A stretch of 64,000 nt of DNA from a phage. Each line of letters begins with the position of its first letter. Position 1 is the stretch's first letter. A program made the translations under genes and the position numbers. Positions 4,526 to 40,232 of this stretch are shown one piece after another. The notes below the pieces were generated by a model. The model was not told the origin of the DNA, did no database searches, and worked only from the letters and a program-made list of their open reading frames with translations. Where the stretch lies: the sequence record PX393110.1; one strand, written 5' to 3'.

Positions 4526-4825
4526 TCACCATGGCCATGGTAGTTTATTTTCGGGCTCCTGCCTATAGTAGGAGCATTTGATACCCAACGATTCCACAAT
4601 ACTTACAGGAATCTTATCAGTTACTTCAGAGTCTTGATAGATTGGTCCGAATACTGATACGTTTGGATCTTGCAACAGTTCAGATATTAATCCAGCCTCT
4701 TCATAAGTCTCGAAGAATGCTGCGGTGGTATCTGGATTACAGCCGAGACCGGTCCATGAGGTGTAAAACTCGTTTACTCCACAGAGAGCACCGTGCTCCT
4801 TATGCACCACTAAAAATCCCAGCAT
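4526..4825 (-). CDS. hypothetical protein
   Basis: ORF track. The start overlaps the RNase H gene end, so the exact start is uncertain. Confidence 0.45.
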   Translation of the reverse strand: MLGFLVVHKEHGALCGVNEFYTSWTGLGCNPDTTAAFFETYEEAGLISELLQDPNVSVFGPIYQDSEVTDKIPVSIVESLGIKCSYYRQEPENKLPWPW

Positions 4826-5330
4826 CTGTGTATCCTTTAAGTTTATTTCTATACTTAACCATTTCCTGCTTAGCTATCTCATCACAGAGATTATTTACTT
4901 TGTAGCGAGGATTATTGAACTTCTGATGACCTTTGACATGCTTAACCTTAATGGACTTAGGGTTAAGATCGCGAAGCATTTCCATATGCTTATCTATGAA
5001 TTCCTTTAATGCCCATTCGCAATCGCATTGGACGACTACCCTAACACCATCGAATGCTGTCTTAGTCATGGCAAACCATAGGGTCTTCATGATCCCTTCT
5101 AGCTCTGCCCAGTTATTATCTACAGCAGTAAATCCTCCGCGAGTTATATGAGCTCGCTGCTCACCAGGAAGACGAATCCATCCTCCGAAACCAGCAGCCT
5201 TACTCTTATGACAGTACGATGCATCTGAGAAGATTGTTATATAGCCCGCAGGGTCCAGACCGCGTTCGGGAGTACCCTCGAAGTGGATAACTCTACCAAC
5301 ATCTTTCTCACCGATAGCATGTTTCTTCAT
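4800..5330 (-). CDS. RNase H (type 1)
   Basis: The DEDD pattern aligns with E. coli RNase HI: FSDAS (FTDGS), AELEGI (MELMAA), QCDCEW (STDSQY), VKGH...NNLCDEIAK (VKGH..NERCDELAR). Confidence 0.75.
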   Translation of the reverse strand: MKKHAIGEKDVGRVIHFEGTPERGLDPAGYITIFSDASYCHKSKAAGFGGWIRLPGEQRAHITRGGFTAVDNNWAELEGIMKTLWFAMTKTAFDGVRVVVQCDCEWALKEFIDKHMEMLRDLNPKSIKVKHVKGHQKFNNPRYKVNNLCDEIAKQEMVKYRNKLKGYTDAGIFSGA

Positions 5331-6898
5331 TACATATCCACCGTAGTTGCCTGGAACAGACCTACCACCATTTCGTGGGACGGCTTCACGACCGGACTAT
5401 CGAAGTCAATAGAGCTGTTGATGTTCTGGTTAACCATCATCAGGCTACGTACTTCCCAGCAAGCACGATCAGTCAGTACACGGTGAATTGCTGCGGTATC
5501 ACCATCCACGTCCATGTTCTGACCACCCATCGCCATCGGAGGAACCTGAATCTCCTTACCCATGTGAGGTCTGACCTTAAATCCCCATACTGAGTAACGG
5601 TGTAGGGATGGCGCACGGTTCATGAATACCGTAGCATTTTCACACAGTCTCCAGCATACTTCCAGAGCTACTCTGGACTTATTCTTGTACATACGCTGTA
5701 CTTTATTGCTGATGTCGTACATGTTGTACCCTTCGTTAGTCGGGCCACCATATAAGTTCTCCAGCTCACCCAGGATGTCTGGCTGAAGTAATTCGTACAT
5801 CATCTTGAACGGTACACCAAGAGTATCCAGAGGAAGATGCGGAGCCGAAGTAACTACAGAACGACCAGAGTAATCAACACGCTTACCTAACAGGTTACCA
5901 CGAATGCGACCACCCTTGCCTTTAAGGTTATTGATCATCGGCTTAATCAAATTACCGCGATAGTCCTTAGTACCTTCCAGGATTAGTCCGTTAACCATCT
6001 TCTGCATTACAATAGATTCACGAGGAATCAGAGATAACAATGCTTCGCTGGCTTCAGCAGTATCACGAATACTTCTGATACGGATTGCATGGCGCAGGAT
6101 TCGCAGGTAGAGTAAGTTAGTCGGATGATACGACATTACCCCATTACTGATACCGACATCACGGTAGCTCGGAGGATTCACCAGTACTGTAGTGTTATAG
6201 AAGTCGCTGAACTCCGTATAACCACTATTGACTACTGTAGGATCTTCACACTCTTCGATATAGGCTTTCATATCGGCGTGGTTAGCTACCAATGCCTGGA
6301 TAAGACTCAGGAGACCTAATTCCGATGACTCATGCTCGGACATACGACGGATCTTAATCATTACTACTGCGAGGCGCTTCGTGCTATCCTGAACTGGGAT
6401 AGTATTAGAGTAGAACATCGCATACTTCTCACGATCTTCATATTCCGGAAGAGCTGCATTAGACTCACGAACCCGCTCCCGATCATCACCAACCATCTTA
6501 GCTGCCAAACCAGCTTCCTGAACTACGAAGCGGTATCTACCGATAAGGAACTGACCGAACTCTCTCTCTGGAAACCCGAATAACGCAGCCATACGTTTGA
6601 TAGCTAATGGATTCACATAAGGAACGATCGTCTCGATGTGACCCATACGGCGGCGACGGGATTCACGATGCATCGCTACCATACCGCATACATTACACGG
6701 AGGAGCTCCCATAACCAGCTGGTTACCACACTCACACTTACCAGTTACCAGAGGTCCGAATATTCGCTGGCAGAATAGCCCACCAGTGAATGGCTTAGGA
6801 TCATGGAACTTAAGATTATACATGCCCATGTTGGTTACTTCACCACTGGACTCGGCACGGATTACAGCATCAGTTGCAATAGATAACTTTAATTTCAT
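5330..6898 (-). CDS. multisubunit RNA polymerase beta-prime, N-terminal half
   Basis: GLFCQRIFGPLVTGKCECGN (Zn ribbon), RRRRMGHIE, NRAPSLHRYSVWGF, and the catalytic loop NMDVDGD (NADFDGD with all three Asp kept). All are collinear with the N-terminal half of bacterial RpoC. Confidence 0.85.
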   Translation of the reverse strand: MKLKLSIATDAVIRAESSGEVTNMGMYNLKFHDPKPFTGGLFCQRIFGPLVTGKCECGNQLVMGAPPCNVCGMVAMHRESRRRRMGHIETIVPYVNPLAIKRMAALFGFPEREFGQFLIGRYRFVVQEAGLAAKMVGDDRERVRESNAALPEYEDREKYAMFYSNTIPVQDSTKRLAVVMIKIRRMSEHESSELGLLSLIQALVANHADMKAYIEECEDPTVVNSGYTEFSDFYNTTVLVNPPSYRDVGISNGVMSYHPTNLLYLRILRHAIRIRSIRDTAEASEALLSLIPRESIVMQKMVNGLILEGTKDYRGNLIKPMINNLKGKGGRIRGNLLGKRVDYSGRSVVTSAPHLPLDTLGVPFKMMYELLQPDILGELENLYGGPTNEGYNMYDISNKVQRMYKNKSRVALEVCWRLCENATVFMNRAPSLHRYSVWGFKVRPHMGKEIQVPPMAMGGQNMDVDGDTAAIHRVLTDRACWEVRSLMMVNQNINSSIDFDSPVVKPSHEMVVGLFQATTVDM

Positions 6899-6913
6899 TT
6901 TAATTTCTCCTAA

Positions 6914-7633
6914 TCAAGGCTTAGCGACGACAGTATAGGCTTCACGAACGATTTCACGAGCTACTTTAGCCGCATGCTGAGTACCACAATACTGATGCAT
7001 GTATTTGAACTGCACAGGTTGCTGCTGGCGAAGATGATTGATATAGCGACGAAGAGTAGGATGGGTGACACTCTGGTCAGCACCACTCACTACCATCATA
7101 AACGCAAACATCTTCAAACTAGCTTCGCGTTTAGCAGGATATTTCTGCATGATGTAATCGATTACACCGTTCACCAGGAGCTTCAGATCACGAGAACGCG
7201 CTATGGGTGATTTCTGGTCTGGGCTAATGGAAGCAGGATCGATTAATTCCACACGACTTTCGCCATCATCGTCCGTTACGAGAGTAGACTCGTTAAAGGA
7301 CATTATGTGACGACGATCCATCGTTTCTTTATCTTCGTGACGAGTATCACCAGTTTTAGCCATATAACCAGTTGGGTTAACTACCCGAAGATACTCATGC
7401 GACACGATAGAGTCGGCAACGTATGGATTATTATTAACACGAGCAATGTTACGGTCTAGCGAACGTAAATCTCCTGAATCTAATGCGCTATCATAGAAGG
7501 ATAAGTCGATGTACTCGTCCCCAGTGTTAGCAATGTTGAATGTTTCATGGAACTTATAGTTAGCGGTCATTGGTCTATCCCAATTAGAGAATTCAAAGAG
7601 CGACCGCGAGGCCGCTCGGTTACCTGCTATCAA
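6914..7633 (-). CDS. hypothetical protein between the two beta-prime halves
   Basis: ORF track. A TTG start overlaps the upstream TGA (alternative ATG at 7570). No motif recognised. Confidence 0.45.
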   Translation of the reverse strand: MIAGNRAASRSLFEFSNWDRPMTANYKFHETFNIANTGDEYIDLSFYDSALDSGDLRSLDRNIARVNNNPYVADSIVSHEYLRVVNPTGYMAKTGDTRHEDKETMDRRHIMSFNESTLVTDDDGESRVELIDPASISPDQKSPIARSRDLKLLVNGVIDYIMQKYPAKREASLKMFAFMMVVSGADQSVTHPTLRRYINHLRQQQPVQFKYMHQYCGTQHAAKVAREIVREAYTVVAKP

Positions 7634-7968
7634 AGCGCGAAGTAATACCAGTCACCATAAACGCGAATCAGCACTTCCTGACTTTCTGCATCCACATTAG
7701 TGAAGTAGAAGCTACCAAATCCGAACTCCAGAGACTCACCAGTCTGCATGAGATCTGCCATTTCATCCATGAACTTATCGAAGTCCGGATCACGGTCCTG
7801 AACTACAGCGACTTCCACCTCCTTGGTGTACAATTCAGAACGACCAATATGAGGAGCAACCTGGCGGAACTCCATTACAGCACCACGAGCCAGATTTTCC
7901 TCAGCAGCATCCCGAACAGAGGCAGTATCGATTGTAGCGAAAGACTTAATTGCATTTAAACGTGACAT
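7630..7968 (-). CDS. small acidic hypothetical protein (class-2 cassette gene)
   Basis: ATG directly behind the class-2 leader TAATTTGGAGCTAATACT. Confidence 0.55.
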   Translation of the reverse strand: MSRLNAIKSFATIDTASVRDAAEENLARGAVMEFRQVAPHIGRSELYTKEVEVAVVQDRDPDFDKFMDEMADLMQTGESLEFGFGSFYFTNVDAESQEVLIRVYGDWYYFAL

Positions 7969-8075
7969 AGTATTAGCTCCAAATTAGATTATCCAGTGAA
8001 GCGCTACCGCGCCCCACCCAAAAGAACGGGCTTTATGAGCTCCCAAAAATCGGTTATTTGAAAAATAAATTTCAA
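7969..8075 (-). promoter_or_regulatory. class-2 cassette b
   Basis: Core 8008..8040 TAAAGCCCGTTCTTTTGGGTGGGGCGCG, then hairpin GCGC-GGTA-GCGC, TAATTTGGAGCTAATACT and the ATG. AT-rich inverted repeat upstream. Confidence 0.55.
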
Positions 8076-8768
8076 TTATTTTTGGTTAGGAGGCATCTTG
8101 CGAGAACGACGATAGTTGATCATCGTACATGCACAGTTACGCTTATCCTGAGTCTCATAGATAATTGCGCTGGATAATTCCACATTAGACAATAGCAGAG
8201 TCATTACCCGACCTTGGGAAGACAGATCCTGGATGCGCTGCTTATTGATGCACTCTCTTACGGTTTCCTTAGAGTACAGCTTACGATCTCTACGTCCGCA
8301 AGTAATCACGTCTTCTATGGGGACCACCATATCCCCTAGTTCCTTGATTATGAAACGATCATCTGTTATGATAGTAGGGAACGACTTCAATAGTTCTTCC
8401 ACAATCCGTAGAATACCATTGCCCATTCCGTAATACCGCCGATTACTAATATCGTCAATAAGATTATGTCGATATTTTTCATTAATGTAGGTCTTGTGAG
8501 TAGCCAGCAGATAGTACAGTTGCATACCACCGAACCCTTCACATGCCAGATTTCTCCGGAGTACCGCCTTACTTCCTGCGATAGTGAAGTTTCTGATAGG
8601 ATACCAATCAGTAGTCCAAAAGTCGTCTATGTCGTCTATATGCGACTCTATTCCATTATACCAGACTGGTTGTAGGGCATCTGTACCTATGAATTTACGA
8701 CCCTCGTAGCATATACTGTCCCCTACCGTATGGATCAGCAGGGGATTATAGATCTTGCCCACATCCAT
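8076..8768 (-). CDS. hypothetical protein
   Basis: ORF track. Visibly AT-richer than its neighbours. No catalytic motif recognised. Confidence 0.45.
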   Translation of the reverse strand: MDVGKIYNPLLIHTVGDSICYEGRKFIGTDALQPVWYNGIESHIDDIDDFWTTDWYPIRNFTIAGSKAVLRRNLACEGFGGMQLYYLLATHKTYINEKYRHNLIDDISNRRYYGMGNGILRIVEELLKSFPTIITDDRFIIKELGDMVVPIEDVITCGRRDRKLYSKETVRECINKQRIQDLSSQGRVMTLLLSNVELSSAIIYETQDKRNCACTMINYRRSRKMPPNQK

Positions 8769-8776
8769 CTCCCAAG

Positions 8777-10291
8777 TTATTTGTTATTCAGATTTAACCC
8801 AGCAATGATCATCTCGGAACGGGTTCCGAAGCTAACATCACCATTAAGCACTGCCGAGGTAAGACGCTGCTTAACGTTACCGTGGCCAATAGACTTCAAC
8901 CAGCTAGGGTGCTTCGTAGGGATAGCATCAGCTTTAATCGCCAGTACCTCACCCTTATCACCCATGCTGCGAACACCGATTCGTCCGTTATTCATCTTAA
9001 CCAGATCAGTACAACCACGAGCAATGATCTCATGGTGAATCGATGCGATACCGATACCGATGTCGTCGAAGATGTGCTTAAGCTGGATTGATGCTAGCTC
9101 TGCACCCTTAATAGCCGACCCAGCTTCGTGAGCAAGATCCGTGATGCACTTATACTTAGACTCGGATACCTGAGCTACCGCAGTACCTCTACCACCTACC
9201 GTCTTCAGGATGTCAGCCAAGGTATTACTTACCGAAGTACCGAATTCCTTAAGAGTAGTCGAGCCAGATGTATGCTTACCACGAAGACCAGCCTGGGTAG
9301 ATGGTTCGGAGATATGCTGCGCCGACGCCGTTCCAATACCGAAGTTAATCGGGAAGAAGTTAGCTGGTTTAGCCGGATCCATACCGCAGCAATGCTGACA
9401 TACCCCACCCTTAGTCGATTCACAGGTAATCGGGCTAAGGACTTTAACGTTACCCTCTTCATCAGCTAACTGATCAACATTCTCCTTAGTGATCAGTACT
9501 CGATCATTAGTGAATCGATACAGTGCCGATTTCTTAGGTAGGGTAATCACTTCCTTAGTTCCGCAATCTTCTTCCACAATAGACAGCTCACGAGAGCAGT
9601 TAACCAGCTGACGAGCGAACCAGCCAGTCGCAGGTACCAGGAAGAAGTTACCAGCCAGACCCTTACGAGCAGGTCCGCAGGTGTTGAAGTAGTTGATAGG
9701 AGACAACCCGGAGCTTAAGTTCTCCATAATCGGCATCGGCATGATCTTACCAGTCATACCTACCAGAAGACCCTTAGCTACTACCATCGAGCGAACCTGG
9801 GGAGGAGATACACGAGCGCCAGATACACCCATCGCATACAGAGGATTATGACGGTCTACCTCTTTGAACCAGCGATCAGTACATTCGTTGATCACCTTAT
9901 CAGCAGCCACCAGACGATCCTCGTACTTCATCTTACCGAGTTCCTGGGTCATTGATGGGAAGTCGATACCGAAGTCAAACTTAGTGTCGTCATAGCACAA
10001 GCTAAGTCCAGACATAGTTGCTTTATGGAACCCGAACTGCTGCAACTTATGGAGTCTACGCCCAGCTACTTCCGGAGTGTAGTTATTATTGATGTGAGAG
10101 ACGATCTTCGCAGATTCCTTCTTATCGATTTCTTTTTCTGGAAGATAGCCACTGATTTCCCAAATAAACAGTCGACCGATAGTAGTTTCTTTAGGACCAT
10201 CAGAGAAGTAAAAACGCACCGGAGTGGTGTAGGTTGCTTCTTTCATATCAATAAGACGGTGTAATTCATTCAAGGACTTTGATACGATCAT
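8777..10291 (-). CDS. multisubunit RNA polymerase beta-prime, C-terminal half
   Basis: TTIGRLFIWEI, GLSLCYDD, SGARVSPPQVRSMV, bridge-helix-like CGPARKGLAGNF..TGWFARQLVN, EEDCGT, GVCQHCCG, trigger-loop-like AQHISEPSTQ, and C-terminal EMIIAGLN. All are collinear with the C-terminal half of RpoC. Confidence 0.85.
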   Translation of the reverse strand: MIVSKSLNELHRLIDMKEATYTTPVRFYFSDGPKETTIGRLFIWEISGYLPEKEIDKKESAKIVSHINNNYTPEVAGRRLHKLQQFGFHKATMSGLSLCYDDTKFDFGIDFPSMTQELGKMKYEDRLVAADKVINECTDRWFKEVDRHNPLYAMGVSGARVSPPQVRSMVVAKGLLVGMTGKIMPMPIMENLSSGLSPINYFNTCGPARKGLAGNFFLVPATGWFARQLVNCSRELSIVEEDCGTKEVITLPKKSALYRFTNDRVLITKENVDQLADEEGNVKVLSPITCESTKGGVCQHCCGMDPAKPANFFPINFGIGTASAQHISEPSTQAGLRGKHTSGSTTLKEFGTSVSNTLADILKTVGGRGTAVAQVSESKYKCITDLAHEAGSAIKGAELASIQLKHIFDDIGIGIASIHHEIIARGCTDLVKMNNGRIGVRSMGDKGEVLAIKADAIPTKHPSWLKSIGHGNVKQRLTSAVLNGDVSFGTRSEMIIAGLNLNNK

Positions 10292-11465: not shown

Positions 11466-11523
11466 TCGGCGGGGAACGCCCCGCGCCCAAGTTAACGGGC
11501 TGCAGAGCGCTCCAGACTTCGTT
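11466..11523 (-). promoter_or_regulatory. class-2 cassette c (degenerate)
   Basis: Core 11477..11508 AGCCCGTTAACTTGGGCGCGGGGCG, then hairpin GCGGGG-CGTT-CCCCGC. AAAAATAAAACGA upstream. Confidence 0.4.
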
Positions 11524-11817
11524 TTATTTTTGGTTTTGAGCTTGCTGGAACATCTTGGTGATTTCCAGCATCAGGTCACGGTAGTCAGAAGTCTGAACTC
11601 CTTCCAAACCGTAGTCGGCAATGATTGACTTGAAGTAGTTCATACCGTCCTGGAGGTTATTGAACTCCAGAGGATCTTCAGCCATCGCCAGGTAGACTTC
11701 GGACATAACCACTGGACGGCCATCTTTCTCATCAACGAAAGCAACCAGAACAGCCAGCTCATCTTTGTCAGCAACTGTAGGATTGGAAGAGAAACCGAAG
11801 TTTTTAGCAGTAAACAT
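11524..11817 (-). CDS. small acidic hypothetical protein (class-2 cassette gene)
   Basis: ATG at 11817 (MFTAKNFG...), behind the leader TAATTTGGAGCTAATT. Confidence 0.55.
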   Translation of the reverse strand: MFTAKNFGFSSNPTVADKDELAVLVAFVDEKDGRPVVMSEVYLAMAEDPLEFNNLQDGMNYFKSIIADYGLEGVQTSDYRDLMLEITKMFQQAQNQK

Positions 11818-11941
11818 AATTAGCTCCAAATTATAACGAACCGTGAAGCGGCCAACCCGCCCCACCCAAAAGAACGGGCTTTAGGACCTCTCAGAGTTCG
11901 TTTTATTTTTCAAAAACATTTCAATAATGAAAAATATTTTT
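11818..11941 (-). promoter_or_regulatory. class-2 cassette d
   Basis: Core 11857..11887 TAAAGCCCGTTCTTTTGGGTGGGGCGG, then hairpin GCGG-GTTGG-CCGC and TAATTTGGAGCTAATT. 12-bp AT inverted repeat ATTTTTCAAAAA/TTTTTGAAAAAT upstream. Confidence 0.55.
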
Positions 11942-11970: not shown

Positions 11971-13422
11971 TCAGCGAGCTTTGCTGATTGCCTGGGTAAT
12001 ACGTTGGGACTGTTTACGCCAGGATTGCTGCAGACGAGGATTAAGCTTCATGATTACAGACATAATCATGGCCAGTACTCCACGCTTAGCCTTAGGACTA
12101 CCAGACTTAGCATCCTTCAGGTATTTACGAGCCACAGTTTTAATATCCTGGGATGGCCAGGTCTTAACGACTGGTGACTTAACCTGCTTAGCCAGCGCTA
12201 CGAAGATGACCAGAGTGCTGATAAGGTCGGAGGTACGTACAGAACCTTTACCGCCCATCAGTACTTCGATAACCTTGTTAACGCGACGGAGCACTTCCGA
12301 CGGAGCCGCTTCGTCTACTCCCTCAGGCATAGCCGTACTCTCAGCAGCAGATAGCTTCCAGGAGTTAGCAGTAGCCATATCGGTAGTGTAGCATGCGGAC
12401 AGATCATCGTCGGATGCTTCGGACAGATTCATGAACTCGTTCTTAGTCGGGTTCCAAACCATGTCCTTGTACTTAATGTACCAGCGACCACCATCGTCTT
12501 TGATCATATCAGGGACTTCTCCCTTAGACAGATCTTCGTTGACAGATCGTCCCATCAACCAGCGGTAAACAGGTTTCAGATCCCAGCGACCGTCAGGAGT
12601 AACCTTCACATCCTGGCCAGTCAGATCCTTAATTACCTGAGTTACGTTATCGCCAGTCTGGTTGATCTTATGGTTAGTCACCAGCTGCGCTACGGACTTC
12701 TTATTACCCTGATCGTCGGTACGTTCTGCACCACGTAAGATCATGGTGGAGTTAATCTGGTCCATAGTGAATCCAGCATCGATAAGACGCTTGATCTGAG
12801 CCATGACCTGATCATACTCCTTCGGTAGATCGTCCACAAACTCGTTGAGCTGCAGACCAGCACCACTCGTCATGCTACCACGACCTGCCGCATCACCAGT
12901 AATCAATCGGGCAATTACCACTAGCTTAGAGCTGGAAGATAGTTTAGGATGGTTGATAAACTTATCTAAAAAATCGTTTATCGTAGTGATCTCTTCAGGG
13001 TTATTATTTCTGTTGCTGGCAGCCAACTCTGTGAACATACCCATAGCAGAACCATCCGGAGTCTCATAAGCATCCATCATGTTCAGCTGGGTAGAGCCAC
13101 CTTCGCCATCTTCCGCAAAGAATGCATCAGCAGAGAACGTACCAGAACGAACTTCTTTCTGTACGAACTCTCGTAGCAAATTCTTAGCCATCTGCTGGGG
13201 CATCATCATAAGATAAGAATAGTAGTCACGCAGGTTAGCATCACTGGTATTCTGCATCTTGCGGAACATAGTATACCATTGACTGCTCTTACCATTCTTC
13301 TCGATGTCAGCGACAGCGTGATCAATCATACGCTGGTCGATGAAACGCTCTACCGAGGCTAGATCCTCGTCCACTATTTGTTCACTCATCAACAGAGTGA
13401 GTAAATTTTGGGCCTTAGTCAT
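11971..13422 (-). CDS. hypothetical protein (483 aa)
   Basis: ORF track. The ATG at 13422 has a GGAG RBS. A terminator hairpin follows the stop. No motif recognised. Confidence 0.6.
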   Translation of the reverse strand: MTKAQNLLTLLMSEQIVDEDLASVERFIDQRMIDHAVADIEKNGKSSQWYTMFRKMQNTSDANLRDYYSYLMMMPQQMAKNLLREFVQKEVRSGTFSADAFFAEDGEGGSTQLNMMDAYETPDGSAMGMFTELAASNRNNNPEEITTINDFLDKFINHPKLSSSSKLVVIARLITGDAAGRGSMTSGAGLQLNEFVDDLPKEYDQVMAQIKRLIDAGFTMDQINSTMILRGAERTDDQGNKKSVAQLVTNHKINQTGDNVTQVIKDLTGQDVKVTPDGRWDLKPVYRWLMGRSVNEDLSKGEVPDMIKDDGGRWYIKYKDMVWNPTKNEFMNLSEASDDDLSACYTTDMATANSWKLSAAESTAMPEGVDEAAPSEVLRRVNKVIEVLMGGKGSVRTSDLISTLVIFVALAKQVKSPVVKTWPSQDIKTVARKYLKDAKSGSPKAKRGVLAMIMSVIMKLNPRLQQSWRKQSQRITQAISKAR

Positions 13423-13458
13423 TATTTTCTCCAATATGTCGACATAAAAGGATGATGA

Positions 13459-20497: not shown

Positions 20498-20807
20498 AGA
20501 CTAAACTCTGACCCGCATGGATGCGTACTGCATGGTTCTTGTTAGAGTTAGTCAGACGAATCCACTTACCTTCGTCTGTAGAGAATACCTGAGCAGTTAA
20601 GCCCAGGTAAGATACAGAAAGATTAGAGATAGAGTCGACAGTTACCGTACTATCTACCGGAAACTCTACCGATGAGCCAGCTCCAACAATGTAGCCACTC
20701 TTACGCAGCTTCATTGGAGCAATACGACTACTGTGCTGATCGTCAGCACCAATTGTCCGAGCGAACGAGCTCTCAACGTAAACAGTTTCAGGAATATTAA
20801 TCTGCAT
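20487..20807 (-). CDS. small beta-barrel protein, possibly dUTPase-fold
   Basis: ATG at 20807. FSTDEGKWIRLTNSNKNHAVRIHAGQSLV loosely parallels dUTPase motifs 3-4 (GVIDSDYRGE..l.N.....i..GdRIAQL). Weak call. Confidence 0.3.
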   Translation of the reverse strand: MQINIPETVYVESSFARTIGADDQHSSRIAPMKLRKSGYIVGAGSSVEFPVDSTVTVDSISNLSVSYLGLTAQVFSTDEGKWIRLTNSNKNHAVRIHAGQSLVYGN

Positions 20808-21396
20808 TGCCAATAGTCTCTTTAACCAGGTGCTCTATTGAACTACCATGTGCCATATGGAGAAGAGACTGGAGAGTACCCATCCATACATCATCACTCA
20901 CTTCGTCTTTGTACTTATTGAAGCAGGTACTGAAGATGTTGCGGCAGTTCTCCAGCTCGCTTTCGCCAAAGAAGATGTTACCCATGCTGAACTCAGTCAT
21001 GATCTCACGAGATACCGCAATAGCATCTGCAACTTTACAGATGAACTTAGCTTCGGCAGATGCAGGAGTGCGGAAAGTAGGAAGTACCTCTTCCCAGATT
21101 TCCTGCTCAACTTTATTCAGAGTCTCTTTTAACTCTGGGAAGCGAGCCTTAGCAGTGTAGGGGACATCACCTGTAAAGATCTCTGGAATGTCGTGAACCA
21201 ACGAGTACTGATTTACTTCCAGACCCTGCTCAGCAGTTAAAAATCCATCCATCACCAGTTTCTGAACAATCAGAGTAGAGTAGTAAGTAACTTCGAAGCT
21301 ATGCTCCGAGATAGTAGAGCGATGAGACAGTACTTGCTTACCTGCGAAACGATTCACGTTATTGGTACACACTGGTACCTTAAAAAGATCTTTCAT
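20797..21396 (-). CDS. HD-domain 5'-deoxynucleotidase (YfbR-like)
   Basis: TISEHSFEV ... LVHDIPEIFTGDVP match YfbR (ENVSEHSLQV ... LYHDASEVLTGDLP). Confidence 0.7.
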   Translation of the reverse strand: MKDLFKVPVCTNNVNRFAGKQVLSHRSTISEHSFEVTYYSTLIVQKLVMDGFLTAEQGLEVNQYSLVHDIPEIFTGDVPYTAKARFPELKETLNKVEQEIWEEVLPTFRTPASAEAKFICKVADAIAVSREIMTEFSMGNIFFGESELENCRNIFSTCFNKYKDEVSDDVWMGTLQSLLHMAHGSSIEHLVKETIGNAD

Positions 21397-21415
21397 GTAA
21401 TTTCTCCTAAGTTAC

Positions 21416-21448
21416 AAAAATAAAGGTATGGAAGTTGCCTCCCACACC
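21416..21448 (-). terminator. promoter-proximal hairpin + U-run
   Basis: GGTGTGG...CCATACC followed by TTTATTTTT. The stem is 7 bp with one G-U pair that is valid only in minus-strand RNA. Confidence 0.4.
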
Positions 21449-21479
21449 TTAACAGCCTTTCGAGCCCTAAAAAGAGCGG
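21449..21479 (-). promoter_or_regulatory. class-1 motif copy 3
   Basis: CCGCTCTTTTTAGGGCTCGAAAGGCTGTTAA. It abuts the upstream stop (21480) and lies 52 nt before ATG 21396. Confidence 0.6.
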
Positions 21480-22553
21480 TTATTCCAGAATAAACGGAGA
21501 CTTATCCCCGAGGCGGTTCGCGACCCATTTCACGAATGGTGAATTAACCAGATGCTCGCACTGGATAGACATGTGAGCTCCAGTAGTCTTACATAGATAA
21601 TGAGCGCCTGCTAACCACATCATCACATCCAGAGTTGATCCTGGTTGGAACTCTCGACCAACATCTTCCATTACGTATTCTAGAATACTGTGATCGCTAT
21701 TATAACGAGAAGCAGCATCTTCAAGAGTAGCGATGTAATGCTGGAAGTAGGTACGGATCTTATACCAGGAATTAAGTGATCCGAGATCAATCGTAGTTAC
21801 CGGAGCTTCATTAATGTCGTCAACATAAGCTCGGATATTACTTACCTGCTTCTTGATGTTCGACACTTCCGGATACCAGTGGAGATCATCCGTCATCACC
21901 ACATAGTTGCCCATATCTACTTTGAGCATAGTTGCGATGATTTCCTGGATGATCGTGAACTCCACCAGATTAACGTTAGTCAATCCCCAGATTAGATCAT
22001 TACTACGGTTGAATACCGTGCAGTCCAGACCACCATTACGGTACTTAAACGATAGAGCAATGTTGCAGATCATATCTGCGGTATTGATGCTGCCAATGCT
22101 GTTTACCAGACCTACATCAGAATCACGGCTGGGATCGTGAATAGTAGCCACGCACTTACGGTTACCCAGGTCAGAACGGAGGCGGTCTGTTACAGTCTGG
22201 AGTTGATCGTAGTTATACAGACGCTCACCGTAAGCACCACGCCAGGTAACCATATCATCGCTAAACATCTTAGCGCGAGGAACCATAATCGACATCCAGT
22301 TATCGATTGCATAGCCACCAGACAGTACCCACAATACTTCCCCCATAATTCCGAGGATATTGTCTTTACGTTCTGGATGAGCCATCCAACGATTAATCGG
22401 ATTACTTAACTCAACTACAGCATGACCGATGGATACTACCGCCGAAGAGTTAACAGAAGTTCTGGACTTCTGCAACTCACCAGCCTTATCCATAGTATTG
22501 ATGCTGTTAACCAGGATTTCAGTATTACTGTTACCGCGAATTACCGAGATCAT
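21480..22553 (-). CDS. thymidylate-synthase-family pyrimidine dNMP hydroxymethylase/methylase homologue
   Basis: GEVLWVLSGG (ELLWFLQGD), YGERL, DQLQTVTDRLRSD..NRK (DQI..V...L..DP.SRR), catalytic-Cys segment DMICNIALSF, and NRSNDLIWGL (ThyA QRSCDVFLGL; T4 gp42 MRSNDVVFGF), DDLHWY. Extra C-terminal extension of about 100 aa. Confidence 0.7.
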   Translation of the reverse strand: MISVIRGNSNTEILVNSINTMDKAGELQKSRTSVNSSAVVSIGHAVVELSNPINRWMAHPERKDNILGIMGEVLWVLSGGYAIDNWMSIMVPRAKMFSDDMVTWRGAYGERLYNYDQLQTVTDRLRSDLGNRKCVATIHDPSRDSDVGLVNSIGSINTADMICNIALSFKYRNGGLDCTVFNRSNDLIWGLTNVNLVEFTIIQEIIATMLKVDMGNYVVMTDDLHWYPEVSNIKKQVSNIRAYVDDINEAPVTTIDLGSLNSWYKIRTYFQHYIATLEDAASRYNSDHSILEYVMEDVGREFQPGSTLDVMMWLAGAHYLCKTTGAHMSIQCEHLVNSPFVKWVANRLGDKSPFILE

Positions 22554-23272
22554 TTAGAGTCCTTACGCACTGAATCAATAGACTTAACTGCAGAGGACAG
22601 TAACTCCAGACGGGCCTCCTGAGGGATCATACCAGATGGCTCGTTCAGGATCATAATACCTTTACCAGTATTAGTAAAACGAGCTGTGATTGATCCAGGA
22701 TACACCGGATGATTCAGAGTTACAGAATTACACAACGCAGCACCGAATCGCTCCTCGTAGGCACGCATAGTTACCTTAAGGAGAGTAGAACTGACTGCTA
22801 CAGAGTATTCAGGATCAACAACACGGAAGTTATTGTCCTCAATACTCTTATCCTTCGTATTGAAGAACAGAGTCATGTTATAATAATCAATAGACTCGTT
22901 ACTGAGACGTAATGCCTCATCACGAGCTTCCTGGCTGGCAAACATACTGTTATGCAGCAGGAAGTAAACGTACGAATCGAATACCGCACGATCACTGACG
23001 ATCAACTCGCCACGATTGTAGGCATCCTTGAACATCTGAGTTCGCTGACGAATAAGACGCAGCTGGAACTCTACCGCTTCCATAGGATCTTCTACAGCTA
23101 AGCGCAGAATATCCATATGGGATGTTACTCCCAGAGGAAGATGGTCACGAGTCTGTACTGCACGGAAGGTACATTCGGTTGATTCTTCCCAACCTTTAGC
23201 CAGGGTAGATTTACCGGTACCCTGCGCACCAGACATAATTACACTGTAGCCTGGGATACTATAGTCTCTCAT
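22550..23272 (-). CDS. P-loop nucleotide (dNMP/deoxynucleoside-type) kinase
   Basis: P-loop SGAQGTGKST and DRAVFDSYVY (dNK/TMPK-like). ATG at 23272 with GGAGAG RBS. ATGA overlap with the next gene. Confidence 0.6.
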   Translation of the reverse strand: MRDYSIPGYSVIMSGAQGTGKSTLAKGWEESTECTFRAVQTRDHLPLGVTSHMDILRLAVEDPMEAVEFQLRLIRQRTQMFKDAYNRGELIVSDRAVFDSYVYFLLHNSMFASQEARDEALRLSNESIDYYNMTLFFNTKDKSIEDNNFRVVDPEYSVAVSSTLLKVTMRAYEERFGAALCNSVTLNHPVYPGSITARFTNTGKGIMILNEPSGMIPQEARLELLSSAVKSIDSVRKDSK

Positions 23273-23304
23273 TATTCTCTCCAATTAAGAATCTTTCCCA
23301 CATT

Positions 23305-23335
23305 TTAACAGCCTTTCAAGACCCTAAAAGAGCGG
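23305..23335 (-). promoter_or_regulatory. class-1 motif copy 4
   Basis: CCGCTCTTTTAGGGTCTTGAAAGGCTGTTAA, 32 nt before ATG 23272. Confidence 0.6.
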
Positions 23336-23361
23336 ACTAAAAAGGCTGGTGTAAATGTGAA

Positions 23362-24333
23362 CTAGCTAAACTTATACCAGCGAGGTCTCATACGGATCTC
23401 GTGATTCAGTTTATGTAGTTTCGAGAATTCGCAGAATGAGTTGGTGAACATCTGGCGAGTATAGAATCGCTCATCCTCTGGCATGAAGTGGAACCATTTC
23501 TCCGGTTCCCATGAATACCCGAAATGTGCACATATCTCTTTGATGTTCTGATACCACCATTCCACGAATACCTGATAACCACAGGGAGGATTCTGGTCAT
23601 TAATCATGTACCATACCCCATCCTGAGTCCCAGGTCCACATACGATAGCGTCATTATCTGTATACGCAGTCTCTTTAGAGTAGGACATAGTTGCCCAGCA
23701 TTGATATGCCATGAACGGACCTAATCCAGATACCTGTAACAGATGCTCGATAGCCTCGGTAGCGAACGGAGACTTCCATGCCCATAAGATAGGATCACTG
23801 TAGGTCTTCACCAGATAGGCTCTGGCAGCTACACTGTACTTAATATCCTCTGGACATACTTCATTAGCCATCTTAACTGCTGTGCTAAGGAAGTAGGCAT
23901 TTGATTGCTGTGGAGCGGTGAACGGAGGACCATCCTCATAACGACGTAGCTCTTCGCGACCCATGTTATGTATGTCGTCATAGCTCATCTCATAAAGAGG
24001 AAGGACTCTGCGGAAGCGATCCATATATGAATCACCACGGTTTATCATCTGGAAGAGTACTACATTAAGTGCTTTACTCTCCCAGCTTAAAGAATCGTTC
24101 TCCAGAATGTTCTTAATAGCCCACACTGTTTCACGATCGTGCTTACGGAACACGTTAGTGAATTTGAACTTACTAATCCACTTATGTTCCGTCCACGGAG
24201 GAGGCAGCTTAAGCACCTCCTTCTTATAATAAACCTCTGTACGTTCACGGTTATACTCCACATACTCCCGTAACTCCTCAGGATTTATCATCCCAAGGAG
24301 TCCTTCGTAATGCAGACCTAACGGTGTTGACAT
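23362..24333 (-). CDS. hypothetical protein inside the modification island
   Basis: ORF track. TAATG coupling to the upstream glycosyltransferase. Trp/Tyr-rich. A DNA base-modification enzyme (for example pyrophosphorylase-type) is suspected from context only. Confidence 0.35.
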   Translation of the reverse strand: MSTPLGLHYEGLLGMINPEELREYVEYNRERTEVYYKKEVLKLPPPWTEHKWISKFKFTNVFRKHDRETVWAIKNILENDSLSWESKALNVVLFQMINRGDSYMDRFRRVLPLYEMSYDDIHNMGREELRRYEDGPPFTAPQQSNAYFLSTAVKMANEVCPEDIKYSVAARAYLVKTYSDPILWAWKSPFATEAIEHLLQVSGLGPFMAYQCWATMSYSKETAYTDNDAIVCGPGTQDGVWYMINDQNPPCGYQVFVEWWYQNIKEICAHFGYSWEPEKWFHFMPEDERFYTRQMFTNSFCEFSKLHKLNHEIRMRPRWYKFS

Positions 24334-25412
24334 TAAAGAATACCTTCTTTGGTAAAGTAGTCGATTACTTCATCCTGAAGTTCTTGTGCGTAATCCTTGC
24401 GCAGATACAGATTCTCATACTGATGTTTCAGCAGAGCATCACGATCTTTCAGTTTCTCTGCAATCTCCGCATTACTGGAGACGATCAGAGGAGCCAGCAG
24501 CTCTTCGGGGACGCCGCTCCGGATTATTGTTCCGGCAGCATCTTTATCCACCAACATCAGAGTACCAGAGCTCAGGTATTCATAATAACGGTTAGGTGGG
24601 CTGGTATAGAACGAGTTACTAGAGTTCCAGTCTTCAATAAGCAGTACCGCTGCGTATTTAGCCACTTCATCCAGCATCTCTGACAGCTTAAACTTAGGCA
24701 GCCAGTTAATAGGAGCAGCAGGCCCCAGCCACTTACGTTCTTTAGGATCCAGCTCTTCCCAGTTTTCCTGCTCGTAGCCGTCAAATCCAGCAAGACCACC
24801 AGTATGTTTAGCGATAGACATCTGAGCTTTGTAGCTAGGCACCGACATAAACAGTTCCAGACCATCCTGCTGGGAGAAGTACTGAGTGAACTTATGGAAG
24901 CGACCTTCACGAGCAGCACCGTAATACAGCAGGCTATTGTCTGGTTTATCAGATGAGCCGTAGCGAGGCTTACGACCAGGAACGTAGGTAAGACGGTTCC
25001 AGTTAATGTGGTGATAGTTCTCTTCGCTAGGGGAGTACTGATTACCCCAGGAAGTACGCTCGAATGCTGCTACTACTTTAAATGTCGTAGCTGCTGTGAT
25101 GTGTCGCCACTGCGGACCCTGGATACGCATACGTGATGAATAATCTTGACCAATCCAGTAAAACTTAGCTCCGAGGTCCGCCTGGTCTACCCAGAATTTA
25201 TACATCTCATCGCGGAACTTACAGAAGGTAGGAACACCATTGACGGCGATGATCACGTCATATTTGGTGCCATCTTCCATAGCCTTAACAAACTTAGGAG
25301 TATCATCCAGCAAGTCCGCCTGAAGTCCGTAGGCTAACCAGGATGCCAGAGTGTTACTGGCGATGATGGATTTATCGCTGCATGGCGAAAAGTTAGTTAC
25401 TGCAATTTTCAT
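24333..25412 (-). CDS. GT-B glycosyltransferase resembling T4 DNA beta-glucosyltransferase
   Basis: From memory of T4 BGT: MKIAVTNF (MKIAIINM), YDVIIAVN (YDRLIVVN), LLYYGAAREGRF (VIYGGSFRSGQR), AAVLLIEDWNSSNSFYTSPPNRYYEYLSSGTLMLVDKD (AALIIGDKNYNDNFITLRVWETMASDAVMLIDEE). Same length class (359 vs about 351 aa). Confidence 0.6.
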   Translation of the reverse strand: MKIAVTNFSPCSDKSIIASNTLASWLAYGLQADLLDDTPKFVKAMEDGTKYDVIIAVNGVPTFCKFRDEMYKFWVDQADLGAKFYWIGQDYSSRMRIQGPQWRHITAATTFKVVAAFERTSWGNQYSPSEENYHHINWNRLTYVPGRKPRYGSSDKPDNSLLYYGAAREGRFHKFTQYFSQQDGLELFMSVPSYKAQMSIAKHTGGLAGFDGYEQENWEELDPKERKWLGPAAPINWLPKFKLSEMLDEVAKYAAVLLIEDWNSSNSFYTSPPNRYYEYLSSGTLMLVDKDAAGTIIRSGVPEELLAPLIVSSNAEIAEKLKDRDALLKHQYENLYLRKDYAQELQDEVIDYFTKEGIL

Positions 25413-25440
25413 ATTTAATTTCTCCGTAGGCTGTCACAAT

Positions 25441-25470
25441 GTAACAGCCTTTTAGCTCATCAAAGAAGCG
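25441..25470 (-). promoter_or_regulatory. class-1 motif copy 5 (variant)
   Basis: CGCTTCTTTGATGAGCTAAAAGGCTGTTAC, 28 nt before ATG 25412. The upstream stop lies inside the motif. Its 3' block forms the hairpin AGGCTGT/ACAGCCT. Confidence 0.5.
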
Positions 25471-26494
25471 AATTAGCTGATGCCCAACTCAGCCACTTAT
25501 CATTGAGATCAGTTAAGTAGGAATAGTCTTTGTTTAATCCGAATACCGTACGGTTAGTTCCATCGAACTTCATTACCCCAGCACCAGGAGCTCGGATAAT
25601 TGCATCTTCGGTAGCCGTACAATACTCTTTCAAGTATTCCTGGATGTTGGGACGAATACGACGGAACGAGCTATCTGCAGAGTCATAGTGGAACATATCT
25701 GCACAATGCCACTGTACGTAGGACTTATCTGGACGGCTAAGCAGCTCATTACGAGTTACCATATCTTTCGGAGAGTAGCCTAGCTTAGCTACGGTGACTT
25801 CGTGAATACCACCGCCATTAGAAGAGGTGTCCATTAACCAGTTCTCATCCCAGTAGAACGAGCTACCAGTACCGGTTACCTGGCCCACTTTCCATCCCAT
25901 CGCCATACCTTTAAACAACAGGTAGCAATCCTCACCTACAGTGAGTTGCTGGAAGGTCTTATCGAACAGCCAGAACATCTTCTCGCTAGTCTTGACCATA
26001 ATACCCAGGTCAGTAGCCGGAGCAGTGTTATTATGGGACTGACGATCGCAGAGTTCAACAATCTTGTAGTTACGGTTCTTGAAGCTACGGACGAACGCCA
26101 TCTCAAACTCAGATCCCTCGAAGTCGATAATGGACCGATCCAGATGGAAGATATCGTCGGCGAACCAGACATCATCATCCACGAAGTAGCAGATGTCTGG
26201 GCACCAGTCCTGCTTCTCCATTACAATCCATGCTTTATCCAGAGCATGGGCACGGATTTCTCCGATTACCGGATTTTCGTACTTAGGGCTATGACAGAAA
26301 TTAAATTGCTCATCCCCACCAAACTGCTCTTCCAGAATTGCCTTATCTTCTTCGGAGGCATCCTGAATAAAGTAGAAGAAGCGATACTCAATAGAGTCGT
26401 CAGTCTTTTTAGCATCTTTGAACGACTGAATCTGACGGAGTACCGACTTCAGACGATGATAGGTTGGGATGATAAAAGCTACTTTGGTGGTCAT
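25460..26494 (-). CDS. GT-A (GT2-like) glycosyltransferase
   Basis: N-terminal VAFIIPTYHRLKSV and the DXD-type motif FVDDDVWF. Confidence 0.65.
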   Translation of the reverse strand: MTTKVAFIIPTYHRLKSVLRQIQSFKDAKKTDDSIEYRFFYFIQDASEEDKAILEEQFGGDEQFNFCHSPKYENPVIGEIRAHALDKAWIVMEKQDWCPDICYFVDDDVWFADDIFHLDRSIIDFEGSEFEMAFVRSFKNRNYKIVELCDRQSHNNTAPATDLGIMVKTSEKMFWLFDKTFQQLTVGEDCYLLFKGMAMGWKVGQVTGTGSSFYWDENWLMDTSSNGGGIHEVTVAKLGYSPKDMVTRNELLSRPDKSYVQWHCADMFHYDSADSSFRRIRPNIQEYLKEYCTATEDAIIRAPGAGVMKFDGTNRTVFGLNKDYSYLTDLNDKWLSWASANSLL

Positions 26495-26500
26495 AATTAT

Positions 26501-27112
26501 TTATCCAATTTGACGAACTAAGCGAAACCCTTCGGCGTACGGCCACTGGGCGGAATATCCACGTAAGGTGGCTAGGGCTAAGATACTCTGGGTATCTCGG
26601 TCTGACTTAATCTGGGAGTCGAATCGTCCCATAGCCTGGCACTTACACTCAATATCGTCCTTATTCAGACGCTCGAAGTAATTAGGTTCCATCTGACCGA
26701 ACTGGGTCAGGGACTCGGCATACTCATATTCCAGGATAAGCCAGTTATACGCTCGGAGAGCTACACGAGCAGCATGATTAACTAGTTGATGGTCCTGGTG
26801 TAGGCTACTGAACGGAATATAGACTACATCCGGCCTGATTTTAGCAACATAGTCCGCAATATCCTTAGCCAATTGCGGAATATCCTTCTGAGTCATACCA
26901 TCGCCTGTGGAGGCATCGTTACGCTCCAGGCAATGTACTTCTTTGATATTCGGATAGACACCGAATGCTGCTTCGGCTTCGCCACGACGGGTCTCGTCCG
27001 GAGCAGTTACTTCGAGGATGAAGAATTGGTCATCGCGGAATTTGCTCATAATACCTCCGCAACCCAGAATCTCATCATCGTGATGTGGGCTGATAATCAG
27101 TCGTGACTTCAT
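26501..27112 (-). CDS. PIG-L/LmbE-family N-acetyl-sugar deacetylase
   Basis: IISPHHDDEILGCGG (family motif PHPDDE..G.GG) and the downstream SLHQDHQ metal-binding motif. Confidence 0.75.
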   Translation of the reverse strand: MKSRLIISPHHDDEILGCGGIMSKFRDDQFFILEVTAPDETRRGEAEAAFGVYPNIKEVHCLERNDASTGDGMTQKDIPQLAKDIADYVAKIRPDVVYIPFSSLHQDHQLVNHAARVALRAYNWLILEYEYAESLTQFGQMEPNYFERLNKDDIECKCQAMGRFDSQIKSDRDTQSILALATLRGYSAQWPYAEGFRLVRQIG

Positions 27113-27129
27113 TATTAATCCTCGCTACA

Positions 27130-27163
27130 CAAAAATGGGGTTAGGCCGTAGAGACCTAACCCC
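27130..27163 (-). terminator. promoter-proximal hairpin + U-run
   Basis: GGGGTTAGG-N9-CCTAACCCC followed by ATTTTTG. It lies between class-1 copy 6 and ATG 27112. Confidence 0.45.
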
Positions 27164-27179
27164 GTACGCCTCTGACACC

Positions 27180-27210
27180 TTAACAGCCTTTTAGGTCATC
27201 AAACAGGCGG
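27180..27210 (-). promoter_or_regulatory. class-1 motif copy 6
   Basis: CCGCCTGTTTGATGACCTAAAAGGCTGTTAA, 67 nt before ATG 27112. The BCCT stop lies inside the motif. Confidence 0.55.
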
Positions 27211-38060: not shown

Positions 38061-39095
38061 TTATTTACGGAATTTGGCGAAGCGAGAGGCAGCACCACCT
38101 TCTTCTTTGTCTTCGTCAGACTTATCGTCGCCGGCATCTTCAGTTTTATCTTCAGATTTGGCGTCAGATTTGTCGTCAGCAGCGTCTTCTTTAGACTCGC
38201 CTTTATCTTCAGACTTATCTTCGGCAGAGCTCGCGTCGGACTTAACATCAGACTTAGCGTCAGATTTGTCGTCGGCTTTCTGATCACCGGACTCTTCCTT
38301 AGATTCTTCGGCCTTAGCCTCTTCTTCAGCTTTAAGCTCTTCGAAGCCATCTTCGCCAACCAGCGGCAGACCTTTAGCCTTACGCTGGGAACGAATTTCG
38401 TCCAGATCTTTACGGACACGCTTGACCAGACCTACGTATTTGTCTTTGTCGAAGCCTTCACGGATGTACGCCTGAGCCAGCGGCTGGTAGGTCTGATCTG
38501 CAACTACCGGATCAGCTTTGCTGAACAGCGGAGTGAAGGTTACAGAACCCTGATTACCACGTACTACGGTAATCTTAACCGGAGAGCCTTTGATGTCTTT
38601 ATCCAGCATACCTTCCAGAACTTCCGGAGAGTCTTCCGCCAGCGCCGTAATGAAGTCGGTCAGTGCGTTAGCCACCTTACCGTTACCGATCACCGCATAC
38701 AGAGTATTCGGCTTCCAGTTATCAGACGGAGTGTCGGTTTTCTGCAGGAAGAAGTAGAACAGGATGTTGTACTTCAGACCGTATTTCCAGTGATTGTATT
38801 CGTTCAGCTCGTCGAGCATGTCATCCAGCTCGGCATAGTTGAAGTTTTCCGGCAGATCTTCACAGTCGGACGGAGTCTGAATACCATAGCTGAAGTAACC
38901 GTGAGTACGGACTTCACGATACAGGTTACCGACGGGGTCAGTTATGATACGACCCTGATGGCTACCTTCCGGAAGGAAAGTCGCGTTAGGGAAGTTACCG
39001 GTACCACCGGATTTCTCTTTACGCTCTTTCATTTTACCTGCGAGGGCTTTGATACCAGCTACGTCTAACTTCTTAACTTGAACTTGTTCAGTCAT
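38061..39095 (-). CDS. probable single-stranded DNA-binding protein with acidic low-complexity tail
   Basis: Strongly optimised codons. Sits in the replication/recombination block. The C-terminal ~90 aa is D/E/K/S-rich (KSDAKSDVKSD...), like the acidic tails of phage SSBs. No sequence identity established. Confidence 0.5.
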   Translation of the reverse strand: MTEQVQVKKLDVAGIKALAGKMKERKEKSGGTGNFPNATFLPEGSHQGRIITDPVGNLYREVRTHGYFSYGIQTPSDCEDLPENFNYAELDDMLDELNEYNHWKYGLKYNILFYFFLQKTDTPSDNWKPNTLYAVIGNGKVANALTDFITALAEDSPEVLEGMLDKDIKGSPVKITVVRGNQGSVTFTPLFSKADPVVADQTYQPLAQAYIREGFDKDKYVGLVKRVRKDLDEIRSQRKAKGLPLVGEDGFEELKAEEEAKAEESKEESGDQKADDKSDAKSDVKSDASSAEDKSEDKGESKEDAADDKSDAKSEDKTEDAGDDKSDEDKEEGGAASRFAKFRK

Positions 39096-39191: not shown

Positions 39192-40232
39192 CTACACCTT
39201 ACGCAGTCGGTCTATCATTTTAGCCCGATGCTGCTCTTCTGTATTGATGATCGAGTACATACGAACCAATACTGACGGATCATTATCTACTCGGTTGGCT
39301 AACTTATCCAGAGCACCTAAGTAGATACTGGTCTCTTCCTTGATTACCTTACGAACTGAGTCAGCAAAGGTAAATCCAATACTGTCTGGGTTGAACGTAA
39401 TACCGTCCAGCATCACAGCCAGCATCACATTGTCCTGGAAGATGTCCGATTTAATAGAATCCAGTACACTATTCTTGCGGACTGTTTCCAATATCGAGAC
39501 GACCTTAGACACCTTCGGGAACCCTTTCCGGCCATTCAGTAGTTCCAGGAAGGTAAAGAATTTGCCTATGTCTTTGATAGATGTAAGCAGCAGGAATAGT
39601 TCAGGATGGTGCTCTGCCAGAATCGACAGGAACATCATCTTCTCTGTATTCGTCTTAGGAATCAGATCCTGTATCGCTTTAATATCTACGTCGGTCACGA
39701 TTGCTCCCATATGTTCGAGTATACGAGTCACGATGATCCTGTCTGTCAGATCAAGATGCTCGACCATAACCACTCCCCAGTCTAAATATAGCTGGATGAT
39801 AGGTTTGAATCGGTTAGGGAGGAACTGATTCCAAAGATTAACATAGCGATGGACAGCCACTTCCTGTCTAACGCTGTAACTATTGCCTAACTCCAGAGCC
39901 TTGTAAAAATCTGAGTTCTCGGCTAATTCGGGTTCTAGCATGTCGATCGATACTTGCTTTACTTCTTTCTTAATTATCGACTCGAGATGATCCCGTGTAA
40001 CTTCTTCTGTGGTAGTGAGCAGCATGTAGGTTAAGCTGGTCACTGCAGAAGATAATGCCTCTTCGGTCTGTCCTCTGAATTTATAATAGGTACACACCCG
40101 TCGGACTATGGCTAGTGATAAGGTGAATAGGGTACGAGAATCCCTCTTCACAGAATTGATCTCCCTATTCACCAATTCAACTAGCTTTTCGACGGTAGCG
40201 TTCTCGAGGATCTCTACCATCTCTTTTATCAT
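39192..40232 (-). CDS. hypothetical protein (346 aa)
   Basis: ORF track. ATGA overlap upstream. AT-rich. No motif recognised. Confidence 0.55.
   Translation of the reverse strand: MIKEMVEILENATVEKLVELVNREINSVKRDSRTLFTLSLAIVRRVCTYYKFRGQTEEALSSAVTSLTYMLLTTTEEVTRDHLESIIKKEVKQVSIDMLEPELAENSDFYKALELGNSYSVRQEVAVHRYVNLWNQFLPNRFKPIIQLYLDWGVVMVEHLDLTDRIIVTRILEHMGAIVTDVDIKAIQDLIPKTNTEKMMFLSILAEHHPELFLLLTSIKDIGKFFTFLELLNGRKGFPKVSKVVSILETVRKNSVLDSIKSDIFQDNVMLAVMLDGITFNPDSIGFTFADSVRKVIKEETSIYLGALDKLANRVDNDPSVLVRMYSIINTEEQHRAKMIDRLRKV

Follow-up and report, generated by a model that had tools for sequence, protein, structure and literature searches.

A phage RNA polymerase beta-prime subunit encoded as two separate halves in swapped gene order, without a recognisable beta subunit

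Introduction

Two modes of transcription takeover are known in phages: a phage either brings a whole polymerase of its own or retargets the host enzyme with small factors. Here we analyze a stretch of phage DNA of 64,000 nucleotides (sequence record PX393110.1; the whole stretch is referred to as the window), in which two separate open reading frames (ORFs) encode the N-terminal half (N half) and the C-terminal half (C half) of the beta-prime subunit of a multisubunit RNA polymerase (RNAP). Over this region the window is 96.6% identical to Escherichia phage vB_EcoM_IME392 (IME392; MH719082, 116,460 bp) and 93% identical to phage EP_H11 (OP688485). An earlier inspection of the letters of the window (the original prediction) had proposed such a split, with the C half first in the direction of transcription.

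The best described systems of this kind are the RNAPs of phiKZ-like and AR9/PBS2-like jumbo phages, which consist of phage homologues of the bacterial large subunits and in which beta-prime is made as an N-terminal and a C-terminal polypeptide that assemble into an active enzyme. These phages also encode pieces of beta, often in two full sets (virion and non-virion), and no sigma, whereas the phage of the window has no detectable beta, one set only, and belongs to a group with genomes of 111-116 kb. The original prediction had doubted that the enzyme is of the phiKZ/AR9 kind, and rightly so: it matches Escherichia coli RpoC with 31% identity (E 4e-50), versus about 23% (E 6e-5) for AR9.

YerA41 and Carin-5 belong to the same wider phage group and share with the phage of the window a related family A DNA polymerase fused to uracil-DNA glycosylase (UDG), thymidine modification genes and a two-part beta-prime. 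In YerA41 (L007 11383-17447), however, the N half, the C half and a beta of 924 amino acids (aa) follow one another in a row. Its beta-prime is split at about E. coli residue 636, near the cyanobacterial rpoC1/rpoC2 site, while the split in the clade of the window lies at about residue 520; because the split sites differ, the fission in YerA41 is independent. The closest unsplit relative is found in Rhizobium phage RHph_TM30 (TM30) and its relatives (Kleczkowskaviridae), where beta-prime likewise lies downstream of the PolA gene and no beta is detectable. Unlike in the window, it is encoded by one 1127-aa gene, and the C-terminal arm of the trigger loop is recognisable.

The largest RNAP subunit also works in two pieces in cyanobacteria and plastids (rpoC1/rpoC2) and in archaea (A'/A''). 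These differ from the present case in their split sites, in the N-to-C order within one operon, and in a beta that comes from the same genome. Split phage beta-primes are thus already known, and ORFs of this kind carry RNAP subunit labels in GenBank, but literature searches returned no paper on this fission site, the swapped gene order, the partner genes described below, or a phage with beta-prime and without beta.

Results

Two ORFs encode the halves of a bacterial-type beta-prime

Both predicted ORFs are present on the minus strand at the predicted positions:
5330..6898, minus strand: N half of beta-prime, 522 aa, with Zn ribbon, clamp helices, switch 2 and the catalytic NMDVDGD
8777..10291, minus strand: C half of beta-prime, 504 aa, with pore/funnel region, bridge helix, second Zn site and trigger loop

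Their identity as RNAP subunit halves was supported by Pfam Rpb1 domains and by matches in the PDB. The N half matched RNA_pol_Rpb1_2 (3e-23) and Rpb1_1 (3e-14), and in a phmmer search of the PDB it aligned with residues 6-514 of E. coli beta-prime (E 4e-50). The C half matched Rpb1_5 (3e-12), Rpb1_3 and Rpb1_4, and it aligned with residues ~553-954, a stretch that takes in the bridge helix and the trigger loop's N arm (4e-29 against bacterial beta-prime in the same kind of search). The five Rpb1 domains are therefore colinear with E. coli RpoC, the N half carrying domains 1 and 2 and the C half domains 3, 4 and 5. The alignment check that the original prediction had called for thus came out in its favor for both halves.

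The catalytic parts of the enzyme are well preserved. Residues 461-467 of the N half read NMDVDGD with all three aspartates retained, where relatives have NADFDGD or NADYDGD. In the alignment with E. coli numbering, the phage halves retain both zinc sites (Cys4 each), switch 2, the bridge helix, the Asp triad and, in the trigger loop, an Arg and a His that correspond to R933 and H936; SI3 (972-1127) has no counterpart in them. Both halves are under strong purifying selection, with ratios of nonsynonymous to synonymous substitution rates (dN/dS) of about 0.03 in comparison with EP_H11 (N half 0.032, C half 0.034).

Two database labels on these genes deserve mention. The N half of IME392 (AXY86067; L001 16457-18025) is mislabelled "beta subunit" in GenBank, and the C half of EP_H11 (WBU87653; L002 26582-28096) is labelled "hypothetical protein", which is an annotation error.

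The two halves belong to a single subunit

When placed on the fused 1127-aa beta-prime of TM30, the end of the N half meets the start of the C half at residues 474-483, with no gap and no overlap. These residues correspond to E. coli residues 515-524, which puts the fission point at about residue 520. Using E. coli RpoC as a tblastn query, exactly one N half and one C half were obtained from each of the full genomes of IME392, EP_H11 and RP13 (complete or nearly complete genomes), and no additional beta-prime half was found; the two halves co-occur in all relatives examined. By these comparisons, ORFs 5330..6898 and 8777..10291 are complementary halves of a single bacterial-type beta-prime. 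Each half has its own GGAG ribosome-binding site, ATG and stop codon, so that the halves would be made as separate polypeptides, presumably assembling after translation like naturally split beta-primes.

The original prediction had also raised the possibility that the halves come from two different enzymes, one virion and one non-virion as in phiKZ-like phages. Besides the physical separation of the genes, nothing was found to favor this, and it is barely credible given that two paralogous sets were not found in any of the full genomes (each has a single N half and a single C half), that the halves are colinear and non-overlapping on the fused homologue, that both are under equal evolutionary constraint, and that they are adjacent in most relatives. 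Joining of the halves into one polypeptide by trans-splicing or a split intein is likewise very improbable. Relatives do have mobile elements in this gene, Acinetobacter phage Ab1-TPeters a group I intron and a metagenomic relative an intein, but these sit in the NADFDGD codons, away from the fission site, which shows neither intein blocks nor extra residues at the junction compared with TM30; each half carries its own ribosome-binding site, start and stop; and in Ab1-TPeters 40 kb separate the two halves. Colinearity on TM30, single copies and separate translation signals therefore rule out the two-enzyme, split-intein and trans-splicing ideas, and the earlier view that the split is not a simple intron or intein split holds.

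No recognisable beta accompanies the beta-prime genes

The original prediction had noted no beta homologue in the window and suggested a search of the rest of the genome. When the window and the full genomes of IME392, EP_H11 and RP13 were searched by tblastn with E. coli RpoB and the YerA41 beta as queries, no hit had an E value below 1, while matching searches with RpoC reached about 1e-50 and 1e-28, so that beta is undetected by this method both in the window and genome-wide. In Pfam scans of about 70 proteins, no match to an Rpb2 family rose above noise (the best, at E 0.09, was dismissed), and PHROG searches likewise detected no beta homologue. An RpoB search of all phage records recovered the YerA41, phiKZ and AR9 groups and none of the 10 beta-prime-carrying Rhizobium phages, and a six-frame motif search for beta signatures (GxKG, PSRM, NxED) gave chance matches only.

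Several candidates for a cryptic beta were considered. The dismissed Pfam match (Rpb2_3, E 0.09) belongs to the following ORF, which has the DNA polymerase A gene on one side and the beta-prime genes on the other:
11971..13434, minus strand: conserved protein of 487 aa, membership of the RNAP module uncertain

This protein contains a beta-fork-like "AYETPDGSAMG", but the motif is not conserved in its homologues, and it was rejected as beta; its AlphaFold2 model is all-helical (predicted local distance difference test score, pLDDT, 54.6), and Foldseek against the PDB gave nothing. Homologues are present in L012, L013, L014, Ab1-TPeters and RP13, in the last of which the gene lies beside PolA and 43 kb from the beta-prime genes. 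RP13 ORF156 (762 aa) was also rejected, having no homologue in IME392. In addition, two adjacent proteins of ~345 aa, encoded at 38061..39095 and 39192..40232 on the minus strand, are conserved between IME392 and RP13 and have no Pfam, PHROG or PDB match. This pair belongs to the replication module, where the genes on either side encode the 5'-3' exonuclease and the DnaB-like helicase.

Conserved partner genes and the history of the gene order

The minus-strand order in the window is C half, ORFs of 230, 112 and 239 aa, N half and an RNase H-like gene, which bears out the prediction that the C half is transcribed before the N half. The genes and the element between the halves are:
8076..8768, minus strand: conserved partner protein of 230 aa, with homologues after the C half in L012, L013, L014 and RP13 (ORF151) and a weak match in TM30
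7969..8075, minus strand: intergenic cassette region ahead of the 112-aa gene, with a hairpin, a -10-like GATAAT and then GGAG
7630..7968, minus strand: small gene of 112 aa between the two units, lineage-specific, outside the conserved module, and absent at this position in L012
6914..7570, minus strand: conserved partner protein of 218 aa, usually beside the N half; the mechanical ORF extends to TTG 7633 (239 aa)

The 239-aa ORF is more likely to be translated as 218 aa from the ATG at 7570. The original prediction had described the intervening sequence as three unrelated genes and a class-2 cassette. The cassette stands; "unrelated" does not hold for the 230-aa and 218-aa genes, which are conserved partners of the beta-prime halves. 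Of the five split-clade relatives examined, all but Ab1-TPeters (that is, L012, L013, L014 and RP13) have the 230-aa gene directly after the C half, and the 218/239-aa gene adjoins the N half in five of six, lying after the C-half unit in RP13. Both partners are strongly constrained (dN/dS versus EP_H11 of 0.054 for the 230-aa protein and 0.015 for the 218-aa protein). Neither family has a match in the 25-kb YerA41 region around the RNAP genes.

Searches with the 230-aa protein and its family gave no Pfam, PHROG or PDB match. The C-terminal domain of the 218-aa protein may weakly resemble sigma region 4 in its predicted fold; its family (7 members) showed no Pfam match of any kind at E up to 10, Sigma70 regions 2 and 4 included, and no PDB sequence match. 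Homologue searches yielded 3-4 relatives for each of the 218-aa, 230-aa and 487-aa families, and alignments of this depth are too shallow for good models.

Gene neighborhoods and profile searches of relatives revealed two conserved two-gene units, one made up of a protein of ~200-240 aa and the N half, the other of the C half and a protein of ~220-230 aa. They are arranged as follows:
Metagenomic relatives L013 and L014: 218-like gene and N half, then C half and 230-like gene
RP13: N half, five small ORFs, C half, 230-like gene, 218-like gene
TM30: two 218-like genes, fused beta-prime, weak 230-like match
Window, IME392, EP_H11 and L012 (a 47%-identical relative): C half and 230-aa gene, then 218-aa gene and N half

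The fused beta-prime of TM30 is thus flanked by homologues of the 218-aa protein and, weakly, of the 230-aa protein. In a neighbor-joining tree with 100 bootstraps, the split clade was monophyletic in 100 of 100 replicates, and the fused TM30 protein branched between the split clade and bacteria. The same split form of the N half occurs in about 15 protein clusters from phages and metagenomes. The tree and the shared split form show a single fission, at about E. coli residue 520, in the ancestor of a phage clade infecting Escherichia, Acinetobacter and Ralstonia. By the gene arrangements, the ancestral order was the 218-aa gene and the N half followed by the C half and the 230-aa gene. In the IME392 lineage the two units then exchanged places, and this is why the C half comes first in the window. 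Because each half has its own translation signals, the exchange is probably neutral, without functional consequence.

Downstream of the N half lies one further gene:
4800..5330, minus strand: RNase H-like gene (Pfam RNase_H 2e-08; PHROG 531 at 6.5e-18)

Its start overlaps the stop codon of the N half (TAATG). Since this position adjoining the N half is kept in L012, co-expression of the RNase H-like gene with the N half is suggested.

The class-2 cassette is an intergenic element of ~85 nt at 7972-8055. A second copy lies at 11819-11910, and two that have diverged further are found at 11469-11531 and 34275-34299; no such copies are expected by chance. On the minus strand the repeated layout is AAAGCCCGTTCTTTTGGGTGGGGCG, a G-U-containing hairpin, a -10-like box, GGAG and ATG. 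The repeated cassette may be a phage-specific promoter or 5' leader, and the region 7969..8075 is probably the boundary between two transcription units. The 112-aa gene, whose product has no family match in Pfam or PHROG, and the cassette are lineage-specific additions. The true start of ORF 11524..11865 is probably the ATG at 11817, because the mechanical GTG start falls inside the cassette. The two small genes that follow the full cassette copies were compared as possible paralogs, and this was rejected (E 14).

Repeated invasion of the catalytic loop in relatives

In Acinetobacter phage Ab1-TPeters (PP763253), a group I intron (L006 16293-16604; Rfam RF00028, 66 bits, E 3e-16) lies inside the catalytic-loop codons of the N half. 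Exon 1 ends in ...PFNAD and exon 2 begins with DGDQMAIH, and the pieces appear in GenBank as three hypothetical proteins. At the same site, a metagenomic relative (L016 10001-12682, metagenome SRR29792786; P0019, 893 aa) carries an intein with an HNH endonuclease (..NAD-[intein..VHN]-CDGD), and the family A DNA polymerase on this contig is likewise intein-bearing. The catalytic-loop codons of beta-prime are thus invaded repeatedly, by intron and by intein.

Genomic context

Phages of the IME392/EP_H11 type are myophages that encode a family A DNA polymerase, a type II topoisomerase and an Mre11-Rad50 fusion, along with a cluster containing a 5-hydroxymethyldeoxyuridine (5-hmdU) DNA kinase. The UDG-fused polymerase groups them with YerA41, Carin-5, SP-15, RP13 and RHph_TM30, and thymidine hypermodification is predicted for this group, these phages included (PMC12686479; bioRxiv 10.1101/2025.03.26.645540). 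In the window, a gene cluster of the thymidine-hypermodification type is found on the minus strand:
20797-30335, minus strand: YfbR-like deoxynucleotidase, thymidylate-synthase homologue, kinase and 5-hmdU DNA kinase (E 5e-35)
20797-30335, minus strand, further members: glycosyltransferase-like protein, PIG-L deacetylase, methyltransferase and full-length BCCT betaine/choline transporter (E 4e-92)

A full-length transporter of the last kind is unusual in a phage. Elsewhere in the window, a single 921-aa ORF (34385-37150, minus strand) joins an Mre11-type phosphoesterase and a zinc-hook Rad50/SMC ATPase in one protein.

Discussion

Since the beta-prime is catalytically intact and no recognisable beta is encoded with it, the second catalytic barrel would have to come from elsewhere. 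Host RpoB is the most likely source, together with alpha and perhaps omega, and the product would be a hybrid host-phage polymerase. Whether the two-piece phage beta-prime needs a beta from outside the phage, most likely host RpoB, appears to us evenly balanced on the sequence comparisons presented here, and its actual seating on host RpoB is plausible at a level even or slightly short of that. We propose more tentatively that a phage clade predicted to hypermodify thymidine swaps only the beta-prime of its host, its own two-piece subunit joining host beta and alpha together with one or two small partners. The further idea that such an enzyme is adapted to modified phage DNA or to phage promoters belongs to this proposal and is equally tentative. 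In such an enzyme the two conserved small partners would assist, one of them perhaps acting like a sigma factor, and the template would be phage DNA with the predicted hypermodified thymidine. This would fit the co-occurrence of thymidine-modification genes and the loss of the jaw, although this fit is speculative. If the hybrid is true, phage transcription should be rifampicin-sensitive. Full rifampicin sensitivity, which the original prediction had listed as a refutation, would therefore not refute a functional beta-prime, because pairing with the rifampicin-sensitive host beta is possible.

Several points weigh against a hybrid with host beta. According to the alignment, the jaw (E. coli 1147-1218) and the C-terminal tail (1343-1406) have no counterpart in the phage halves; the universally conserved C-terminal motif (the GLKENVIVGRLIPAGTG region) is absent; the phage beta-prime is just 26-31% identical to that of E. 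coli; and its binding to host beta is inferred from sequence. By analogy with crAss-like phages, whose RNAP is to our knowledge undetectable by sequence, a beta too diverged for sequence methods is conceivable, and the 230-aa partner and the two ~345-aa proteins, having no fold assignment, are possible candidates. The phage might then encode a complete polymerase, with the beta function supplied by one or more highly diverged proteins such as the 230-aa, the 487-aa or the two ~345-aa proteins. Conserved partner genes of unassigned fold do travel with the beta-prime genes, and in every other known phage multisubunit polymerase the beta is phage-encoded. We nevertheless consider this unlikely, as beta-prime is easily recognised (E 1e-50) and a co-evolving beta should be recognisable too, as that of YerA41 is (5e-21); moreover, the 487-aa and 218-aa proteins are predicted to be helical rather than barrel-like, the candidates have no Pfam or PHROG match, and among the genes common to IME392 and RP13 there is no large unexplained protein near the module. 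It is more improbable still that the halves do not function as a polymerase subunit at all and serve instead to shut off or redirect host transcription, as a decoy or regulator with host sigma, beta or DNA as its binding target. The lack of a detected beta and the missing jaw and C-terminal motif would suit such a role, but an intact active site would be needless for a decoy, and lineages at 30-40% identity all preserve the Asp triad, the bridge helix, both Zn sites and the Arg and His of the trigger loop, with dN/dS of about 0.03.

If the phage beta-prime does work on host RpoB, the closest functional parallels would be T4 gp55/gp33, AsiA/MotA and the SPO1 sigma factors, with which it would share the retention of a host core whose specificity is changed by phage proteins; one of the partners here may weakly resemble sigma region 4. 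We know of no system of that type in which a phage protein takes the place of a catalytic core subunit.

Read conservatively, our analysis still documents a single fission at a new site in beta-prime and a later swap in gene order, together with two previously unnoticed conserved partner proteins and the repeated invasion of the catalytic loop by intron and intein. If the hybrid enzyme is true, it would represent a third strategy of transcription takeover, in which the phage supplies only the catalytic beta-prime, in two pieces. It would also provide a natural test of the exchange of RNA polymerase core subunits between distant lineages, a lead on how DNA with bulky thymidine modifications is transcribed, and an enzyme without the jaw that is bound by some inhibitors of the host enzyme. 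If confirmed, such a hybrid enzyme would make a new category.

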